DNA from: a virus
DNA: 64,000 nt
Strand: one strand, 5' to 3'
Virus record (IMG/VR): IMGVR_UViG_3300031539_000002
Shown one piece after another: positions 28,665 through 40,804 of this stretch (its first letter is position 1; each line of letters starts with the position of its first letter). A program made the position numbers and the translations under genes. The notes beneath the pieces are model-generated. The model saw only the letters and a program-made list of their open reading frames with translations, made no database searches and was not told the origin of the DNA.

Positions 28665-29194
28665 TGCCAGCTCAATACGCACATCTCGATGGAAGGCGCT
28701 ACGTCAACGCGGATTTCGTGGGCAAGGTCCGCGAGCACTACCCCGCCACCACGAAGAAGATCCCGCTTGGGTACTCGACGTACACGGGCTGGACGGGCAA
28801 GGACGAGGTGCTCTTCACCGAGCACCAGCCGCTTGACGATCTCGCGCACTTGGCCGGCCAGCTCTACGAAGTCACCTTCGACCCGTCGCACCCTGAGTGC
28901 TTCGAGGAGGACATCCTTGGCCGGGTGAGCCACACGACCGTCGAGAAGCAGGCGTCTCCTGCTGAGGGCTCCAGGGCCCGCACGGGGAGTGAAGTGACGC
29001 TCGAGCAGCGGTGGGGCGGCACGTTGGGGGATGCGCAGGGTCGGGTCGCTGCGAGGAAGCAGCGTGAGGACCAATTGCGTCGTCGCCGGGCCTTCCTCGC
29101 TGGGATTCTGGAAGAGCGCAAACGAGTCACGGCAGCCGGGGAAGCCCCGACTACCGTGAATGAGTGGCTCGCGTGGGACGCTAGCGGAGAATAA
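28661..29194 (+). CDS. Hypothetical protein
   Basis: 177-aa ORF coupled to the peptidase stop. Confidence 0.6.
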   Translation: MMPAQYAHLDGRRYVNADFVGKVREHYPATTKKIPLGYSTYTGWTGKDEVLFTEHQPLDDLAHLAGQLYEVTFDPSHPECFEEDILGRVSHTTVEKQASPAEGSRARTGSEVTLEQRWGGTLGDAQGRVAARKQREDQLRRRRAFLAGILEERKRVTAAGEAPTTVNEWLAWDASGE

Positions 29195-30500
29195 CGTCGT
29201 CGAAGTCGCCCTCTTCCCGAGCACGCAGCATCACGTCGCGCACACGGTTGAGGGAAACGGTGACTTCGCGTTCGTCAGTGAGACCATGAGCCTCCGCGAT
29301 TTCTCGCACGGTCATCTCTTTGACGAACCGCTCCACCATGAGTTCGTGATGGAACTCGGGGTCAAGGTCGGGGTCGATTTCGTCCCTGATGATCTCGGCC
29401 ACGCGTCCAAGCACGTCTTGGAAGGAATTCTCGTTCATGATGGTGGTTTCGACATCCGCGAAAGCATGGTCGTCACGCAGGTTGTCGATGGGGTCCCCCA
29501 CGAAGTCGTCCTCGCTGTGCTCCGCGTAGGAGTTCACGGAGAGATTCTCGGACTCGTTGATGCTCCTCGGGATCACGACCTCGGTCCAGTTGGAGGGGTC
29601 GTACTGCCCGATCTCTTTCTTCGTCAGGGCGCCGTGGAAGGTGCGACAGACGGGTTCGCGCCCTTCGTTGCGGATGTCGGTGTAGGCCCCGCGACGGGCC
29701 CATGCTTGGACCTGTGACGGTGGGATCGACTTCCCGGCTTCGATGCGTCCGCGCAGACCGTCGCGCTGCATGATGCGCTCAAGCCAGTTCATGGCGTGGT
29801 CTTCGACCTTCCCGAATTCCTCGGAACGGGGCATCTTGCGGCGCAGGTGCAGCGTGATGCGGCCCCACATCGTGTCCCAACGGTCCCCGAAGAATTGGGC
29901 CGTCTGGTTGGGGCCTGCGGAGAGCACGATCTTGCCTTCGTACTTCTCCTTGAGGAGCTTGGCCTTCTTGACGCCGAGTTCAGTGAGGGCCCATTCGCCG
30001 CGGCCGCTGAGCTGGCTCATCTGCGCTTTGAGGTCTGTGAGGCGTTCCCGACGTTTCTTGCTCAGGTTTGCGGTGTTGCGCTTGATCTTGGCACGGACCC
30101 GCTGCTTCTCTTTGGGGGCTTCGTTGGGGTCGCGCAAGGTCGAGGCTTCGGTCTGAGTGACCCCCAACAGCCGGTAGCATGCTTCCTCAAGACGATCGAG
30201 CTCGGGGAGCATCGGCTTCGCACAGAGGGCGTCGCTGTCGGGTCGGTATTGCCTGGTCTGGTGGTACCAAGCAAAATGGACGACCCGATACAGGCCGTCC
30301 CGACTTTTGGAAGAGCGCGACTTGAGGGGCCACGGGCAGTCAGCAGGATCGATCCCGGCGAGCCGTAGCACGTCGTCTTGCACTGCCTCGTGGGGGACAC
30401 CAACGTAGGCTTTGAAGCCTGTCAGCTTGCCCAAGAGGTAGAGCATGGGTTCGTAGAAGGAGGATTCCTTGGGACGTGGTCCCAGAGCAGTGTGCGTCAT
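29181..30500 (-). CDS. Sigma70/ECF-like factor fused to an N-terminal Mrr-N-like winged helix
   Basis: Region-2-like VEDHAMNWLE…AWARRGAYTDIR; region-4 HTH RFVKEMTVREIAEAHGL…VSLNRVR; RGEWALTELG. Confidence 0.65.
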   Translation of the reverse strand: MTHTALGPRPKESSFYEPMLYLLGKLTGFKAYVGVPHEAVQDDVLRLAGIDPADCPWPLKSRSSKSRDGLYRVVHFAWYHQTRQYRPDSDALCAKPMLPELDRLEEACYRLLGVTQTEASTLRDPNEAPKEKQRVRAKIKRNTANLSKKRRERLTDLKAQMSQLSGRGEWALTELGVKKAKLLKEKYEGKIVLSAGPNQTAQFFGDRWDTMWGRITLHLRRKMPRSEEFGKVEDHAMNWLERIMQRDGLRGRIEAGKSIPPSQVQAWARRGAYTDIRNEGREPVCRTFHGALTKKEIGQYDPSNWTEVVIPRSINESENLSVNSYAEHSEDDFVGDPIDNLRDDHAFADVETTIMNENSFQDVLGRVAEIIRDEIDPDLDPEFHHELMVERFVKEMTVREIAEAHGLTDEREVTVSLNRVRDVMLRAREEGDFDDVILR

Positions 30501-30613: not shown

Positions 30614-30642
30614 TTTCTAGGTGAGGTACGGAGGGGTGTCAA
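30614..30642 (-). promoter_or_regulatory. sigma70-type promoter for the sigma-like gene
   Basis: TTGACA-N17-TAGAAA on the minus strand. Confidence 0.5.
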
Positions 30643-35567: not shown

Positions 35568-38003
35568 ATGGCCTTGACCCCCGCACAGCGAGAACTCGTC
35601 AGGATTGCTGCCCGGACTTCGGACCCCGAGCGGCGTCGGGGACTGTTGATGCGTCTTGTGGATGCCCTTCCGAGAACCCCTCTTGTCCGTGGGGCTGGGG
35701 AAAAGGTGCTTGCTCGGAGTCTGGACCAGTTCTCGCGCGGCGGTGAGGTGCCCATGACCCCATTTGCCAAGCGAATGGTCCGTCTCGCTTACGCGACGAC
35801 AGACAAAGTGCTTCGCCAAGGGATCCTCGAGTCGGTTCGCGTTGCGGCTTACCCGAAGGAGTTTCTGGAGGCGGTCAAGCAACAGAAATTCCGCAACCCA
35901 GTCACAAACAATCAAGTGAAGTTCGTCTCTCTGCCTGGCACGATGCAGACGCAGATCTACGAGCAGTGGAGGCAAAAGAACCAGCCCCCTACTGGTCTTG
36001 AGAATGTGCAGGTGCCTCAGGAGGTCCTGACGGAGGCCCGTGAAACTATTTACGGTCACCTGCCGCAAGCTGTCTCGTCTATGGAAGAGGCGATGAAGCT
36101 GCAGGAGCAGGGCAAACCTTGGCGCACCACGATGATTGCGAAGGGGGCGAAGGGGGGCATGAAGTTCTGGGAGGCGTCGAGCGACGGGAAGACGATTCTG
36201 GCGCGGTGGGGCCCCATGGGGCCCGCGGGCGACTGGAAACAGAGCAAGGAGATGAAGAGCGTCAAGGACGCTTTCAAACGGCGCGACTCCAAAGAGAAAA
36301 AGGGCTACATGAGCGCCGGCTTCAACATCGCCATGGCGGTTACGGACGGCCCAGTTGGGCTGACGACGGACGGTGTGTGGGCTCAGCTCGAAGAGAAATT
36401 CGGCAGCGATCCTGAAAAAATGGGGCAGGCGGTCAAAGGTGCTTTGGCCAGCCTCACGCAGCTCGATGCCTGGAATCCCGGTGGCTGGGACTCCGTGCAT
36501 GACACGGCGAACGGGCTCGTGCAGAAGTGGAAAGAGCACCAAGCCGGGGCCGACTCTTCGACCGCAGAGGTCCTGAAGGAAGCCCCCAAGCCGAAGAAGG
36601 ACAAGCCGAAGCCGAAGAAAACGAAGGCCCCTGAGATGGTCGACATGACGGCCGACGTCATGGATTTTCTCAAGCAGATGGGGACCAGTCCCTCGAAACT
36701 GCCGGATCTCGACAGCGGGCTCGTCTCGTTGGTGTCCGAGTGGGAAGGTTCCGATGCAGATTTCGACAAAATCGACGAGCTCGGGAAAGAGGTCTTCGGC
36801 AACAACTTCGATGACACTCGGCGCGTTGAAATGATGCGTGCTGTTGCGGATGGTCTTGAGAATCAGGTGAAGCAGGCGGAGGCCGAAGGTAACAAGGAGC
36901 ACGCGGCGAATCTCGAGGAGATGATCGGCATCGCTCGCAAGAGAGCCGACTTCCTTGAGCATGATGTCAAGACGAAGAAGAAGAAGAAGAAGACCCAGGC
37001 CCCTCCGATGGTTGACATGACGGGCGACGTCATGGAGAAACTCAAGCAGATTGGCGAGGAGTTCGACGAGAAAGGTGAGGCGGCTAAGAAGAAGCTGGAA
37101 AAGGCCAAGGCCAAGCCCAAGCCGAAGAAAACCGAAGCACCGAAGCCTGAGAAGACCGAGGCCCCCAAGGGCAAGCACAAGGATCGCAAAGAACTTCGTG
37201 CCAAGCCGAAAAAGAAGATGGCTGATTCGGTCAAAGTCAGTGATGAGCTCTCAGGGATTCTGATTCCCGACAGCATGAGCGATGCGAAGAAGGCTCAGGC
37301 CAAGCAACAGCTCAAATCCGCGAACTTCCAACTCCTCTCAACCCTTCGGGAAAACGCCCAACACGCTCTGGACAGCCCTGGGGGTGCCTATGCCAAGGCC
37401 CTCAAGAAGGCCGGTTACACCCCGGAGGGCATCCGAGACATGCACACGGCCCTGTCCAAGGCCCTCGTGCCCGCGCTCGGCAAGAAATACCACCCCGACG
37501 TGCTCCAGGTTGCCAACCTGCACGACCTTGAGTCGGAAGATGCTGACCAACTCGCAGCTTTCAAGGGCGACAAGCCTGCTCGAGGCAAGAAACTCACGCC
37601 ACAAGAACTGTTCAACAAGTTCATGGCGAAAGCCAAGCCGGAGACGAAGGAGCGCATGCAGGGTATGCCTCTCAACGATTTCATGGCCATGTACGCCGCG
37701 ATCATGTCCGAGGAAGACGAAGGGTTTGACGCTCCGGGCAAGACAGCCGGCCGTCTCCCACAAGAACCTCACAGCGTCGTCCAAGATGCGTTCGAGGAAG
37801 GCGTCCTTGCGATGGATGACACCGTGAACGACATCCTTGCAGGTGAGGATGAAGACGCTGGCGGCATCACCATCTTCGACTCCCCCGAAGAGGCGAGGAC
37901 AGCGAAGTTGTCCGATGAGGATCGACAAATCGTCCGGCTGGCCCACTCCACGGGCAATGTGAATCTTCGGCGACGCCTGCTCGCCATGTTCCGAGCTTCG
38001 TAA
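35568..38003 (+). CDS. Large modular protein with a WGR-like domain
   Basis: KFWEAS…ARWGPMG…KEKKGY; NPVTNNQVKFVSLP module; three hairpins; shared C-terminal domain. Confidence 0.8.
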   Translation: MALTPAQRELVRIAARTSDPERRRGLLMRLVDALPRTPLVRGAGEKVLARSLDQFSRGGEVPMTPFAKRMVRLAYATTDKVLRQGILESVRVAAYPKEFLEAVKQQKFRNPVTNNQVKFVSLPGTMQTQIYEQWRQKNQPPTGLENVQVPQEVLTEARETIYGHLPQAVSSMEEAMKLQEQGKPWRTTMIAKGAKGGMKFWEASSDGKTILARWGPMGPAGDWKQSKEMKSVKDAFKRRDSKEKKGYMSAGFNIAMAVTDGPVGLTTDGVWAQLEEKFGSDPEKMGQAVKGALASLTQLDAWNPGGWDSVHDTANGLVQKWKEHQAGADSSTAEVLKEAPKPKKDKPKPKKTKAPEMVDMTADVMDFLKQMGTSPSKLPDLDSGLVSLVSEWEGSDADFDKIDELGKEVFGNNFDDTRRVEMMRAVADGLENQVKQAEAEGNKEHAANLEEMIGIARKRADFLEHDVKTKKKKKKTQAPPMVDMTGDVMEKLKQIGEEFDEKGEAAKKKLEKAKAKPKPKKTEAPKPEKTEAPKGKHKDRKELRAKPKKKMADSVKVSDELSGILIPDSMSDAKKAQAKQQLKSANFQLLSTLRENAQHALDSPGGAYAKALKKAGYTPEGIRDMHTALSKALVPALGKKYHPDVLQVANLHDLESEDADQLAAFKGDKPARGKKLTPQELFNKFMAKAKPETKERMQGMPLNDFMAMYAAIMSEEDEGFDAPGKTAGRLPQEPHSVVQDAFEEGVLAMDDTVNDILAGEDEDAGGITIFDSPEEARTAKLSDEDRQIVRLAHSTGNVNLRRRLLAMFRAS

Positions 38004-38005
38004 AA

Positions 38006-38188
38006 ATGCGACTGCGAGGAGACATCGAGCTCCACCTCGGGATCGACCGCAGGTGGTACGTCGTCGAGCGCCGAACCTTCAATCCAGAGGGCCGGATCAT
38101 CGGGCGCCCCGAGGGCTACAGCTCCCATCATGAAGCCAGACGGTGGAGAACCCTGTACCGCGCTGTCCGCGAACTCCAAGTCGCCTAG
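38006..38188 (+). CDS. Small hypothetical protein
   Basis: 60-aa ORF starting 2 nt after the upstream stop. Confidence 0.5.
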   Translation: MRLRGDIELHLGIDRRWYVVERRTFNPEGRIIGRPEGYSSHHEARRWRTLYRAVRELQVA

Positions 38189-38211
38189 GGAGAGTAAAAC
38201 CTCTGCTAGGG

Positions 38212-38790
38212 ATGATTTCTCGACCTGAAAACCTCCAAGAGCGGTTCATCCGAGTTTCTAGGGAGCAAAAAGCTACCTTGGTAGTGTCTCCTGACGACTT
38301 CCGAACTGACGACCAGGGCATCTACGAACAGGTAGGGGACATGGGACTCATTGGCTGGAGCATGGCTACACGCGTGTTTCAGGAGCTTTTGCCGACCGTG
38401 GATGAGGTCCGGGTCCTCGCGGGGGCGCCCGGTTCTGGCAAGACTACGTGGCTCGAGCAGCATGGTGTTGCCGGTGTTCTCTACTTCGACAGCACGGGAA
38501 GCGCGAGGAAGAGCCGACGAGAACTGTGCAGGATGGCGGCCGACGCCGGCAGGGAGATCTCTTGCGTGTTCCTCGACGTGGAGCTCGCGGTGTGCCTTGC
38601 GCGCAACGCCACTCGACCTGAGCATCGACGTGTGCCTGAGGAGGTCCTCCGCGGTATCCACCACAGGCTTGCTGAGTGCCCTCCAGACGTGGATGAAGGG
38701 TGGCATCGCGTGCTCAGGGTGGGGGCCGACCCGAGGGCTCTCGGGGGCCTCTGCGGCCGCGTGCTTGACAGCCCGGGTGACGACCCCTAG
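38212..38790 (+). CDS. P-loop kinase (polynucleotide-kinase/AAA_33-like)
   Basis: LAGAPGSGKTTW, FDST, CLARNATR…RVPEEV; start uncertain. Confidence 0.75.
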   Translation: MISRPENLQERFIRVSREQKATLVVSPDDFRTDDQGIYEQVGDMGLIGWSMATRVFQELLPTVDEVRVLAGAPGSGKTTWLEQHGVAGVLYFDSTGSARKSRRELCRMAADAGREISCVFLDVELAVCLARNATRPEHRRVPEEVLRGIHHRLAECPPDVDEGWHRVLRVGADPRALGGLCGRVLDSPGDDP

Positions 38791-38793
38791 CCT
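38765..38793 (+). promoter_or_regulatory. sigma70-type promoter
   Basis: TTGACA(38765-70)-N17-TAGCCT(38788-93). Confidence 0.65.
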
Positions 38794-38798
38794 CGTTC

Positions 38799-39270
38799 GG
38801 CTGTCTTCCCTCCGTCCTCGACGGAGGCGAACCCCGCAGGTGGGGAGACCATACGCAAGATGGTCAACCCTGGGGTCGAGCGGAACGCTCGGGCGCGCCT
38901 AACGCTGGGCATCCAGGTCTCCCGACGAAAACCTCGACGGGGACTCTCAGTATCGACGCGCTCGTAGTGGGGAAGCTGGGGAAACCCAGGAGGGACAACG
39001 AAGCCTCCAAGACAGCCCCTCAATGCCGCCTACGCAAGAGGCCAACAGGCGAGGGAAAAGGTTGCACGCGAACGGGCTGATCCTAGCCACGCAGGGTCTT
39101 CGGGATGACTCGACTTCAACACACAGCACAGCAAACAGGACGGGACCAACAGGTCTTGTCCTCCGTGTCGTTGTCGGGACACTCCTCCGTTTTCTATTCG
39201 CTCCGACGAGAGAGCCTGAACCCTGAGTCTGCTTCCCTGGATGGAAACAGCTCAGGGTTTCTCTCGTCGC
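38799..39270 (+). ncRNA. Candidate large structured non-coding RNA of unknown class
   Basis: Nested helices found by eye, GNRA loops, G-U pairs favouring the plus strand, 5' helix beginning at the predicted +1; no credible ORF. Confidence 0.6.
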
Positions 39271-39560
39271 CCCTCTCCCGGGGTTAAGAGTTAAGAGAAT
39301 AGAGATGGTTGTTTGAAGTAGTAGTCCAACAAATCAAAATCCAAATCCTCCTTCAGCTTCTGATCCAGATCCTCATCATCCTCGTCATCCAACTACTACC
39401 AACCGACAATCGAAGAAGACTCCGGGTTTCCGTCTTGGAAACCTCCTAAACGGGGTCAAAACACTACCTGGGGGCAGTTTCCCTGTTTGCTGGGAAGTCA
39501 GACCCTGTTTGAGATCTTTCTTGAGCCGGTGCTTCGCCTATGGGGAGACCTGTTTGAAGG

Positions 39561-39971
39561 ATGTCCGACAAACGCAGAGCAAGGCAGGGGAGTAAGGGAG
39601 GCAACTTCACCCCCACGCAGGCGAAAAAGCTCCTTGCGCTGCCGGTTTACGCAGTGCTGCGAGGTCAGGCTGTCCCTATTTTTCCGGGAACCTCCCTGGC
39701 TGCACCTTCGGGCCTGGTGGGGATCTTCATGAAACCGGGCAGCTCCTGTCGAGGGCTGCCCGGAGGGAGGGGCATAGTTCTCCCTGTTTGGTTGAACGAC
39801 CGACAGTGGGAGCGCGCTGTCCTGCCTGTTCTCCAAGACCCCCGGTGGTCAAACAGCAACCCGACCTTCGTTCAAACCGCTTCGGTCAACTTCCCCTCTG
39901 TGGTGGACATGATCGGCAACGAGCTCGCGGCTAGTTTCCACGCTGCGGGCTACGGGCCCTTGCCGACGTAG
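39561..39971 (+). CDS. Hypothetical protein
   Basis: 136-aa ORF; a partial copy of the CTAT motif lies upstream. Confidence 0.6.
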   Translation: MSDKRRARQGSKGGNFTPTQAKKLLALPVYAVLRGQAVPIFPGTSLAAPSGLVGIFMKPGSSCRGLPGGRGIVLPVWLNDRQWERAVLPVLQDPRWSNSNPTFVQTASVNFPSVVDMIGNELAASFHAAGYGPLPT

Positions 39972-39980
39972 AGTGACAAG

Positions 39981-40187
39981 ATGCCGAGCAATGTGAAGCC
40001 ACCATCGAAGCAGCCCACCGGAATCGTGCGCCCTGAGGACGAGATCGTGTGGACGAAGTGTCGCGGTTCTTCAAAGTGCGAAGGCAATCGCGCGCAGGTG
40101 CTTTTGAAGAAAAACGAAGGCCTTCGTGGAACTTGGATTCAGTACGTCTGCATGACGTGCAAGCGCACCTTTTCCATTCACTTGTAG
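39981..40187 (+). CDS. Small zinc-ribbon protein
   Basis: CRGSSKC…CMTC. Confidence 0.65.
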   Translation: MPSNVKPPSKQPTGIVRPEDEIVWTKCRGSSKCEGNRAQVLLKKNEGLRGTWIQYVCMTCKRTFSIHL

Positions 40188-40201
40188 GGCGTATAAGGGA
40201 G

Positions 40202-40804
40202 GTGCCCCCGTACTCGTCCGCGATTCTCTTCCATGGACCCGGTGCCCGTGCTGCTGCCATGCGGGCTGCCAGCGGCCTCGGAAGGCTGCTTCATTCCCCT
40301 TTTGGGGAGGCTGGGCTCAAGATTGCGGAGAGCCGAGAGATCATCAGCATCATGAACAACACCCCGGTCGGCGACCGTGCGGGTGTCCTCGTGATCGGAC
40401 CTGTGGATCGAGCGGCCCCGGCCTCCACGGATGTTCTCCTCAAAAGCATCGAGGAGTTCAACCCCAACATCGTGCGCCCTGTCCTGTGGGCCCATGACGA
40501 GACCGAGGTGAGTTCCACGATTCGCTCAAGATGCCTGCGACGATGGTGTCCTGGTGAGCGACTCGTGGATGAGGATGTGATGGAGGCCGCGCGACAGCTC
40601 GTCTCCGAGAGTTTGGGTGGGCACCGGGCGTCCGTAGTGGAACTCCTGAACGATCGAGACCCTCGAGATATCCTGGTCGGCGCTGCACAAGCTCTCCATG
40701 AGCGCGGGATCGACAAAGAGACCCAATACCTTTGGGAAGGCGTCCGTGCGGCGCTTCGTTTTCGCAACCCGACCGAGACGGAAGCTCTCTCGGCGTTCTT
40801 GTAG
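40202..40804 (+). CDS. Clamp-loader delta-prime-like subunit (shortened HolB)
   Basis: ILFHGP, LLKSIEE, TIRSRC; GTG 40202 with AGGGAG upstream. Confidence 0.7.
   Translation: MPPYSSAILFHGPGARAAAMRAASGLGRLLHSPFGEAGLKIAESREIISIMNNTPVGDRAGVLVIGPVDRAAPASTDVLLKSIEEFNPNIVRPVLWAHDETEVSSTIRSRCLRRWCPGERLVDEDVMEAARQLVSESLGGHRASVVELLNDRDPRDILVGAAQALHERGIDKETQYLWEGVRAALRFRNPTETEALSAFL

Follow-up and report, generated by a model that had tools for sequence, protein, structure and literature searches.

What is encoded in the 770 nt that separate a kinase-like gene from a set of replication genes in IMGVR_UViG_3300031539_000002, a 64,000-nucleotide stretch of viral DNA (hereafter the window)? Inspection of the open reading frames (ORFs) showed that this gap (38791-39560, + strand) holds no credible coding sequence. 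An initial annotation, made from the letters alone, had proposed a highly structured RNA of ~470 nt, ending at 39270 and equipped with its own sigma70 promoter, and had interpreted it as either a novel phage non-coding RNA or a structured replication pre-primer in the manner of ColE1 RNA II. The comparison of 13 lineages places the whole folded unit, ~510 nt in length, at 38800-39309 on the + strand, and it is almost certain that a real structured RNA gene, under strong constraint and outside every described family, is encoded here. The proposal of a novel structured RNA with a sigma70-type promoter of its own has been borne out, and the pre-primer alternative is disfavoured. With regard to function, the interpretation we prefer, at a probability of about 0.55, is that of a stand-alone RNA gene, transcribed early by the host machinery, ended by Rho and acting in trans.

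Covariation and architecture of the RNA

The lineage set, which includes the window, was assembled from homologues of the upstream kinase, from homologues of p136 (the 136-residue product of the first gene downstream) and from a DNA-pattern scan of JGI metagenomes, the last adding three members; the homologues lay on contigs of many different metagenomes. Compared with the window proteins, the kinase is 42-65% identical, p136 49-72% and the DNA polymerase III delta' homologue 61-83%. The RNA core is nearly invariant although the flanking proteins are only 42-85% identical, and this nearly invariant part comprises the first ~350 nt of the gap. No conserved ORF was found in the RNA-bearing gap on either strand across the compared lineages. 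Gene callers likewise leave it empty, except for short opposite-strand calls in three lineages (L055, L056 and L057), which we take to be spurious.

Folding of 38799-39270 as the + strand gave -213 kcal/mol, with z = -4.5 against dinucleotide shuffles (z = -3.0 for the - strand), so that the comparison suggested by the initial annotation came out better than the shuffled controls. Covariation, another of its suggested checks, was evaluated on two alignments, with a control in which the 3' partners were slid by 1-3 columns. For ten sequences, the 107 consensus pairs were 96% paired, as opposed to 39-50% in the slid control, and 37 pairs were doubly changed (5-10 in the control). For all 13 sequences, 120 consensus pairs were 90.4% paired versus 41-52%, with 59 doubly changed pairs versus 18-28. 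None of 500 column shuffles equalled the observed pairing in either set. Compensatory changes consequently exceed both the slid-partner and the shuffle controls, as expected of a conserved structured RNA, and the same holds for native relative to cross-lineage duplex energies in the 3' domain (see below). In the 13-lineage set, helices P1 and P2, the long arm and the GNRA hairpins all receive support from covariation. The sense of transcription is fixed as +, since many of the conserved G-U pairs would turn into A-C mismatches if the opposite strand were read.

The 5' domain (38800-39016, + strand) is closed by P1, in which 38800-38807 pairs with 39009-39016; in the window, GGCTGTCTT (38799-38807) is complementary to AAGACAGCC (39009-39017). 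P1 is 100% paired with two compensatory pairs, and occurs in variants such as GCUGUCU/AGACAGC and GCCGUCU/AGACGGC. Within the domain lie the P2 hairpin, with double changes in seven of its eight pairs, a P3/P4 arm, a long irregular arm, a GNRA hairpin at 38976-89 with four stem variants (CUGG/CCAG, CAGG/CCUG, CCGG/CCGG and CUGC/GCAG), and an invariant GGAGG...CCUCC hairpin. All of the elements that the initial annotation had listed for 38765-39270 were recovered at their coordinates, including the hairpins at 38809-27, 38847-65, 38976-89, 39028-42 and 39204-39269. Two of them, at 38847-65 and 39028-42, are present in the window and optional in the family, being missing from some lineages. The local CGAGCG/CGCTCG hairpin did not survive the comparison; it is not part of the consensus, in which CGCUCGGGCGCG instead pairs over a long range with CGCGCUCG(U)AG. 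The alternative pairing of GGGAGACC with GGTCTCCC appears in no consensus fold, although no separate test of this pairing was made.

Several blocks are conserved without any change. The sequence ACGAAGCCUCC (38998-39008, + strand), forming the loop and 3' strand of the GGAGG/CCUCC hairpin, is identical in 13 of 13 lineages, and so is GGGAAAAGGUUGCAC (39053-39067, + strand), which spans a junction and a small hairpin. A more divergent member of the family, known from a metatranscriptome contig, carries GGCUAAGGUUGC where GGGAAAAGGUUGCAC would be. GGAUGA (39103-08) and UCGC (39198-201) are also universally invariant. The former opens the helix GGAUGA../..CACUCC (39103-39185, + strand; nine pairs, 92% paired, four doubly changed), which encloses a hairpin that is variable and specific to each lineage, located at 39137-62 in the window.

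The 3' domain (39187-39308, + strand) could not be analysed by pair counting because the MAFFT alignment was too poor in this region, and independent folds and duplex energies were used in its place. Minimum-free-energy (MFE) folds of the last ~140 nt, computed independently for all 13 lineages, converged on one architecture. A closing helix joins 39187-39204 to 39280-39308 and carries an asymmetric, purine-rich bulge of the UAAGAG type; inside it stand a long hairpin (39204-39269) and a small CCCC/GGGG hairpin (39270-83). The loop of the long hairpin, C(U/C)CUGGAUGG (39235-44), is conserved, and its C(U/C)CUGG portion (39235-40) is universally invariant. The strands of the closing helix differ between lineages in a concerted manner (for example UCUAUUC/GAAUAGA, UUCUCUC/GAGAGAA, UUCCUUC/GAAGGAA, UCUACG/CGUAGA, UACCUG/CAGGUA and GGCUC/GAGCC). 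Native 5' and 3' strands reached a mean duplex energy of -19.6 kcal/mol, compared with -12.6 (sd 3.5) for cross-lineage combinations, and the native partner ranked first or second in 11 of the 13 lineages. Because the closing helix covaries between lineages, the folded RNA is taken to extend over 38800-39309; the structured RNA originally proposed is real, with its length corrected from ~470 to ~510 nt and its 3' boundary shifted from 39270 to ~39309. Small ORFs considered as hidden coding in this tail were discarded as unconserved between lineages, among them one of 13-20 codons that starts at an AUG within the loop of the conserved hairpin, and an acidic 33-residue ORF on the minus strand (39291-39392).

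Known RNA families and distribution

Does the RNA belong to a family already described? The 64-kb window was compared with the 4227 models of Rfam 15, which include RNase P, tmRNA, SRP, 6S, group I and II introns, GOLLD, ROOL, HEARO, OLE, raiA and the riboswitches, and nothing reached a gathering score. With lax filters and E ≤ 10, the region 38600-39600 yielded five matches at chance level, all on the minus strand and at 14-18 bits where 38-77 are needed. Eight relatives searched at E ≤ 1 gave no family match and one irrelevant match elsewhere. The earlier statement that the RNA could not be matched to tmRNA, RNase P, SRP or 6S was accordingly extended by the Rfam search that had been suggested with it, which found no family in the window or in these relatives. 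A full-text search of the published literature on the invariant motifs returned nothing relevant, and the RNA does not figure in the main text of a 2023 catalogue of phage structured RNAs, whose motifs average 67 nt.

A highly divergent form of a housekeeping RNA such as RNase P RNA or tmRNA, missed by current models, is very improbable. Its size and complexity would suit a ribozyme, the phage possesses a kinase of the polynucleotide-kinase type, which would modify RNA ends, and a relative of 230,069 bp (G001, the IMG/VR contig behind lineage L011) encodes 36 tRNAs. However, neither the lax search of the 1-kb region nor that of the eight relatives produced an Rfam match, and ARAGORN detects no tmRNA either in the window or in the relative of 230 kb. 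The RNA 5' end pairs with nucleotides ~210-217 rather than with the 3' end as in tmRNA. The P4 between CR-I and CR-V and the P1 joining the ends that define RNase P RNA are absent from the consensus structure, and reading of the alignments revealed no long-range pairing of the P4 type for the invariant GGUUGCAC block. The tRNA genes of the 230-kb relative are arranged in several clusters, one of which (121-125 kb) is situated just upstream of the region homologous to the window; in the window itself ARAGORN finds no tRNA gene.

Among described RNAs, the closest in character are GOLLD and ROOL, large ornate RNAs of unknown function which are common in phages and prophages. They resemble the RNA described here in exceeding 400 nt, in having several domains, GNRA tetraloops and long invariant single-stranded blocks, and in being phage-encoded between protein genes with no known biochemical role. 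In contrast to them, the RNA matches their Rfam models in neither sequence nor structure, has no adjoining tRNA genes, occurs only in one clade of high-GC phages with genomes of roughly 230 kb, and is fixed upstream of clamp-loader and ribonucleotide reductase (RNR) genes and followed by a unique C-rich tract. With 6S and decoy RNAs it shares a promoter of the stable-RNA type, probable early and abundant expression and a possible capacity to sequester protein. However, its multi-domain, branched fold differs from the 6S rod with a central bubble, and no Rfam 6S match was obtained.

The RNA is rare and, judging from the collections searched, restricted to a single clade of environmental phages with genomes of roughly 230 kb. 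blastn of the RNA region against GenBank phages gave no match; in IMG/VR the RNA is present only in two contigs, both from one lineage, the remaining 15-mer matches being due to chance; and the RNA was absent from 185,579 cellular genomes when these were scanned with two patterns. Four further candidates (L047, L050, L051 and L052) were rejected as chance matches to a 23-base pattern, and represent one unrelated, repeat-rich, low-GC sequence recovered from several metagenomes. The order RNA-p136-p68-delta'-delta-RNR, in which p68 denotes a 68-residue protein, is common to all 13 lineages, and the gene-free gap measures 750-1000 nt. The kinase precedes the RNA in nine of them. Since L055, L056 and L057 keep the RNA without a kinase, the RNA is not tied to that gene, and travels instead with p136, p68 and the replication genes. 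Two more distant phages (L001 and L002; delta' 41% identical) are without RNA, kinase, p136 and p68 together, and a distant kinase homologue (P0018, 38% identical) occurs in another, gap-free context.

Transcription of the RNA and possible roles in cis

The RNA is preceded by a sigma70-type promoter (38765-38793, + strand) composed of the -35 box TTGACA (38765-38770), a 17-nt spacer and the -10 box TAGCCT (38788-38793). The predicted +1, ~G38800, coincides with the first base of P1. The same TTGACA-N17-TAGCCT arrangement, with +1 near 38799, had been recognized at the outset, and its positions proved invariant in the 13 lineages, namely CTTGACA, the N17 spacer, and the T, A, G and final T of TAGnnT (T-12, A-11, T-7). 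By sequence, it has the -35 TTGACA, the 16-18-nt spacer and the -10 TAnnnT with A-11 and T-7 that characterize sigma70 promoters. The stop codon of the kinase gene overlaps the -10 box. The TAG of this box is not kept as a kinase stop codon, since it is invariant also in the three kinase-less lineages. The combination TTGACA-N16-18-TAnnnT is found at a single site in the 64-kb window, and is missed by a simple consensus promoter scanner because of its -10 box, TAGCCT.

Only one other TTGACA-N17-TAG is present in the window (30617-30642, - strand), upstream of an ORF (29181-30500, - strand) with a weak, sub-threshold match to Sigma70 region 4 (E = 0.009). The 230-kb relative has a TTGACA site in a similar place (155053, minus strand). 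That relative contains eight TTGAC-type sites where 3.7 would be expected, which fits a small class of promoters that may be early and read by the host polymerase.

Fragments of the RNA are also encountered in environmental libraries. A marine-sediment metatranscriptome run contained a 260-nt contig matching 38962-39221 with nine differences, together with a 243-nt contig from a more divergent member; these contigs of relatives, 243-260 nt in length, fall wholly inside the RNA. Similar pieces were present in a second run labelled RNA, and a marine-sediment DNA run included a 540-nt contig of a relative. The metatranscriptome contigs give a weak hint that the RNA is expressed.

Where would such a transcript end? 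A terminator scan found no intrinsic terminator after the RNA. Instead, the RNA is followed by a C-rich, G-poor, rut-like tract (39310-39420, + strand), predicted to be unstructured and proposed as a Rho-dependent terminator and insulator. Its segment 39325-39404, with 4 G and 31 C, is the most G-depleted + strand 80-mer of the window, the next containing 12 G, and in the complete 230-kb relative, too, the lowest G count belongs to the homologous tract (7 G versus 12). In all lineages a short purine-rich stretch gives way to ~100 nt of C-rich, nearly G-free sequence; in every lineage checked the composition was kept and the sequence was not. The tract is mostly unpaired in MFE folds, and its composition and predicted fold are those that define a rut site, for which 70-80 nt or more of unstructured RNA, rich in C and poor in G, are required. 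Long-range helices around it, present in the single-sequence folds of some lineages, were inconsistent and were set aside.

Further downstream, a phage-type promoter-like motif GGTG-N6-CTAT (39528-39541, + strand) ends exactly 19 nt before the p136 ATG. CCTAT or TCTAT is located at the identical distance from the p136 start in 13 of 13 lineages, with GGTG or GGTA at the N6 spacing in 11. Because a rut-like tract lies behind the RNA and p136 has a motif of its own, it appears that the RNA is transcribed separately from the replication operon, and that the two units are served by different promoter classes.

This arrangement bears directly on whether the RNA could be a cis-acting leader of an early replication-operon transcript, governing the passage of polymerase through the Rho-type site by acting as an attenuator of the riboswitch kind or as a processive antiterminator comparable to HK022 put or Bacillus EAR. 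All 13 lineages have the promoter, the RNA, the rut-like tract and the replication genes in line on a single strand, there is no intrinsic terminator after the RNA, and UCGCUCC can pair with either an upstream GGGC or a downstream strand of the GGAGU type, a possible switch. As with put and EAR, a structured RNA directly follows an early promoter and lies ahead of a site resembling a terminator and of a long operon. The known cis regulators, put and EAR RNAs included, span 65-250 nt. By comparison, the present RNA, at 510 nt and with several self-closed domains, is four to eight times larger than put or EAR and has no Rfam match to them, nor was any riboswitch family matched in the window region or the eight relatives. 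Moreover, its structure closes on itself ahead of the rut-like tract, and the downstream operon has a promoter-like motif of its own, conserved 19 nt ahead of the p136 ATG. A leader function is therefore considered unlikely, if still a realistic alternative.

Alternatively, the transcript could prime or activate replication at the odd tract 39283-39556, in the manner of ColE1 RNA II, T4 oriF or the T7 primary-origin transcripts, with p136 and p68 as origin-binding factors. The locus is directly upstream of replication genes, two basic proteins (p136 and p68) are always adjacent, and a strong promoter is positioned ~500 nt before a compositionally unique tract that is A+T-richer and strand-asymmetric, a purine-rich RNA segment (39283-39309) running ahead of the pyrimidine-rich part. 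ColE1 RNA II is similar in its length of ~500 nt, its sigma70 promoter and defined stem-loops, and its location by replication functions and before an unusual DNA tract. However, the G-poor transcript over the tract (4 G and 31 C per 80 nt) disfavours a persistent R-loop and is the opposite of the G-rich, hybrid-stabilising transcript of RNA II, and the tract is only ~55% A+T. The cumulative GC skew of the window rises steadily through the locus with no inflection, and in the 230-kb relative the skew minimum is near 60 kb, whereas the RNA is at 162.8 kb; skew is, however, a weak marker of phage origins. No iterons are common to the lineages, each of which has its own short repeats at chance level; the three copies of CCTGTTTG in the window, examined as candidate iterons, have no counterpart in the other lineages. 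No promoter-like site corresponding to the antisense promoter of ColE1 was detected on either strand of 38000-40500, by a scan that also misses the real + strand promoter. The invariant loops and tetraloops are, in addition, kept far beyond the needs of priming alone. Given the lack of a skew inflection and of shared iterons, and the G-poor transcript, a primer role of the ColE1 or T4 type is disfavoured, and an origin transcript in general is judged distinctly improbable.

A probable role in trans and its genomic setting

In the interpretation we favour, host sigma70-RNA polymerase would transcribe the RNA early in infection, Rho would end transcription in the C-rich, G-poor tract at 39310-39420, as its composition suggests, and processing would probably shorten the 3' end as far as the closing helix. 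The replication operon (p136, p68, clamp-loader delta' and delta, RNR) would be driven separately by the phage-type GGTG-N6-CTAT promoter. The mature RNA would then act in trans as a tertiary-structured molecule, whether as the scaffold of a ribonucleoprotein (RNP), as a decoy or in a ribozyme-like capacity. To our knowledge, every bacterial or phage RNA this large and complex (RNase P, tmRNA, group I and II introns, OLE, GOLLD, ROOL and HEARO) is trans-acting, catalytic or part of an RNP, and none is a leader.

A number of observations weigh on the other side. Without an intrinsic terminator, the proposed ending by Rho derives from base composition. The RNA invariably lies in line, and on the same strand, with p136, p68 and the replication genes, so that read-through, and hence a role in cis, may occur. 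All 13 lineages belong to one clade, and the co-occurrence with p136 and p68 could reflect shared ancestry. Structure comparison found no recognisable RNA-binding fold in p136, and no function-defining motif was identified. The metatranscriptome contigs, finally, cannot show the ends of the transcript, and DNA can contaminate RNA libraries.

The genes p136 (39561-39971, + strand) and p68 (39981-40187, + strand), the next after it, encode possible partners of the RNA. The p136 protein is basic (pI 10.6), and its gene is downstream of the RNA in 13 of 13 lineages. It matches no Pfam or PHROG family. Its AF2 model is confident (pLDDT 80, pTM 0.73) but returned nothing meaningful when compared by Foldseek and VIA-align with the PDB, the best Z being 3.2, and the ESM Atlas likewise yielded no useful match. 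The p68 protein, likewise basic (pI 9.7) and beside p136 in 13 of 13 lineages, is zinc-ribbon-like with a CxxxxC...CxxC pattern, and has a single weak match to a PHROG of unknown function. It is conceivable, although doubtful, that the RNA represents a new class of large ornate phage RNA working in replication start-up, as an RNP with p136 and p68 or as a ribozyme-like molecule. Such an RNA, made first by the host polymerase, might load or license the clamp loader or replisome, or disarm a host factor.

The surrounding DNA, with a G+C content of ~60%, looks like a piece of a very large phage, and the nearest relatives of its class II RNR come from "uncultured phage" records of 462-635 kb. Directly upstream of the RNA lies the AAA_33/polynucleotide-kinase-like gene (38143-38790, + strand; Pfam AAA_33 at 7.8e-12, PHROG "polynucleotide kinase"). 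Its ORF has 215 codons from the first GTG and its homologues measure 155-192 residues; the true start is probably further downstream than this GTG. Following p68, the + strand encodes homologues of DNA polymerase III delta' and delta, RNR and a RecD2-type helicase. The longest ORF of the delta' homologue (40049-40804) begins with a GTG at 40049 and overlaps p68; the similarity to homologues sets in only at about residue 48, which puts the probable true start near 40190, directly past the p68 stop.

Solved large structured RNAs are almost all ribozymes or the cores of important RNPs, and GOLLD, ROOL and OLE are still open problems. Large, highly conserved tertiary-structured RNAs are rare, and the one described here is newly described and outside the known families. 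It is also unusually clean, with well-defined predicted ends, the sole consensus host-type promoter in 64 kb, a unique terminator-like tract, and an unvarying pair of putative partner genes, p136 and p68, by the clamp-loader genes; these features make it directly testable. Through this locus, early gene expression can begin to be approached in an uncultured clade whose phages measure roughly 230 kb.

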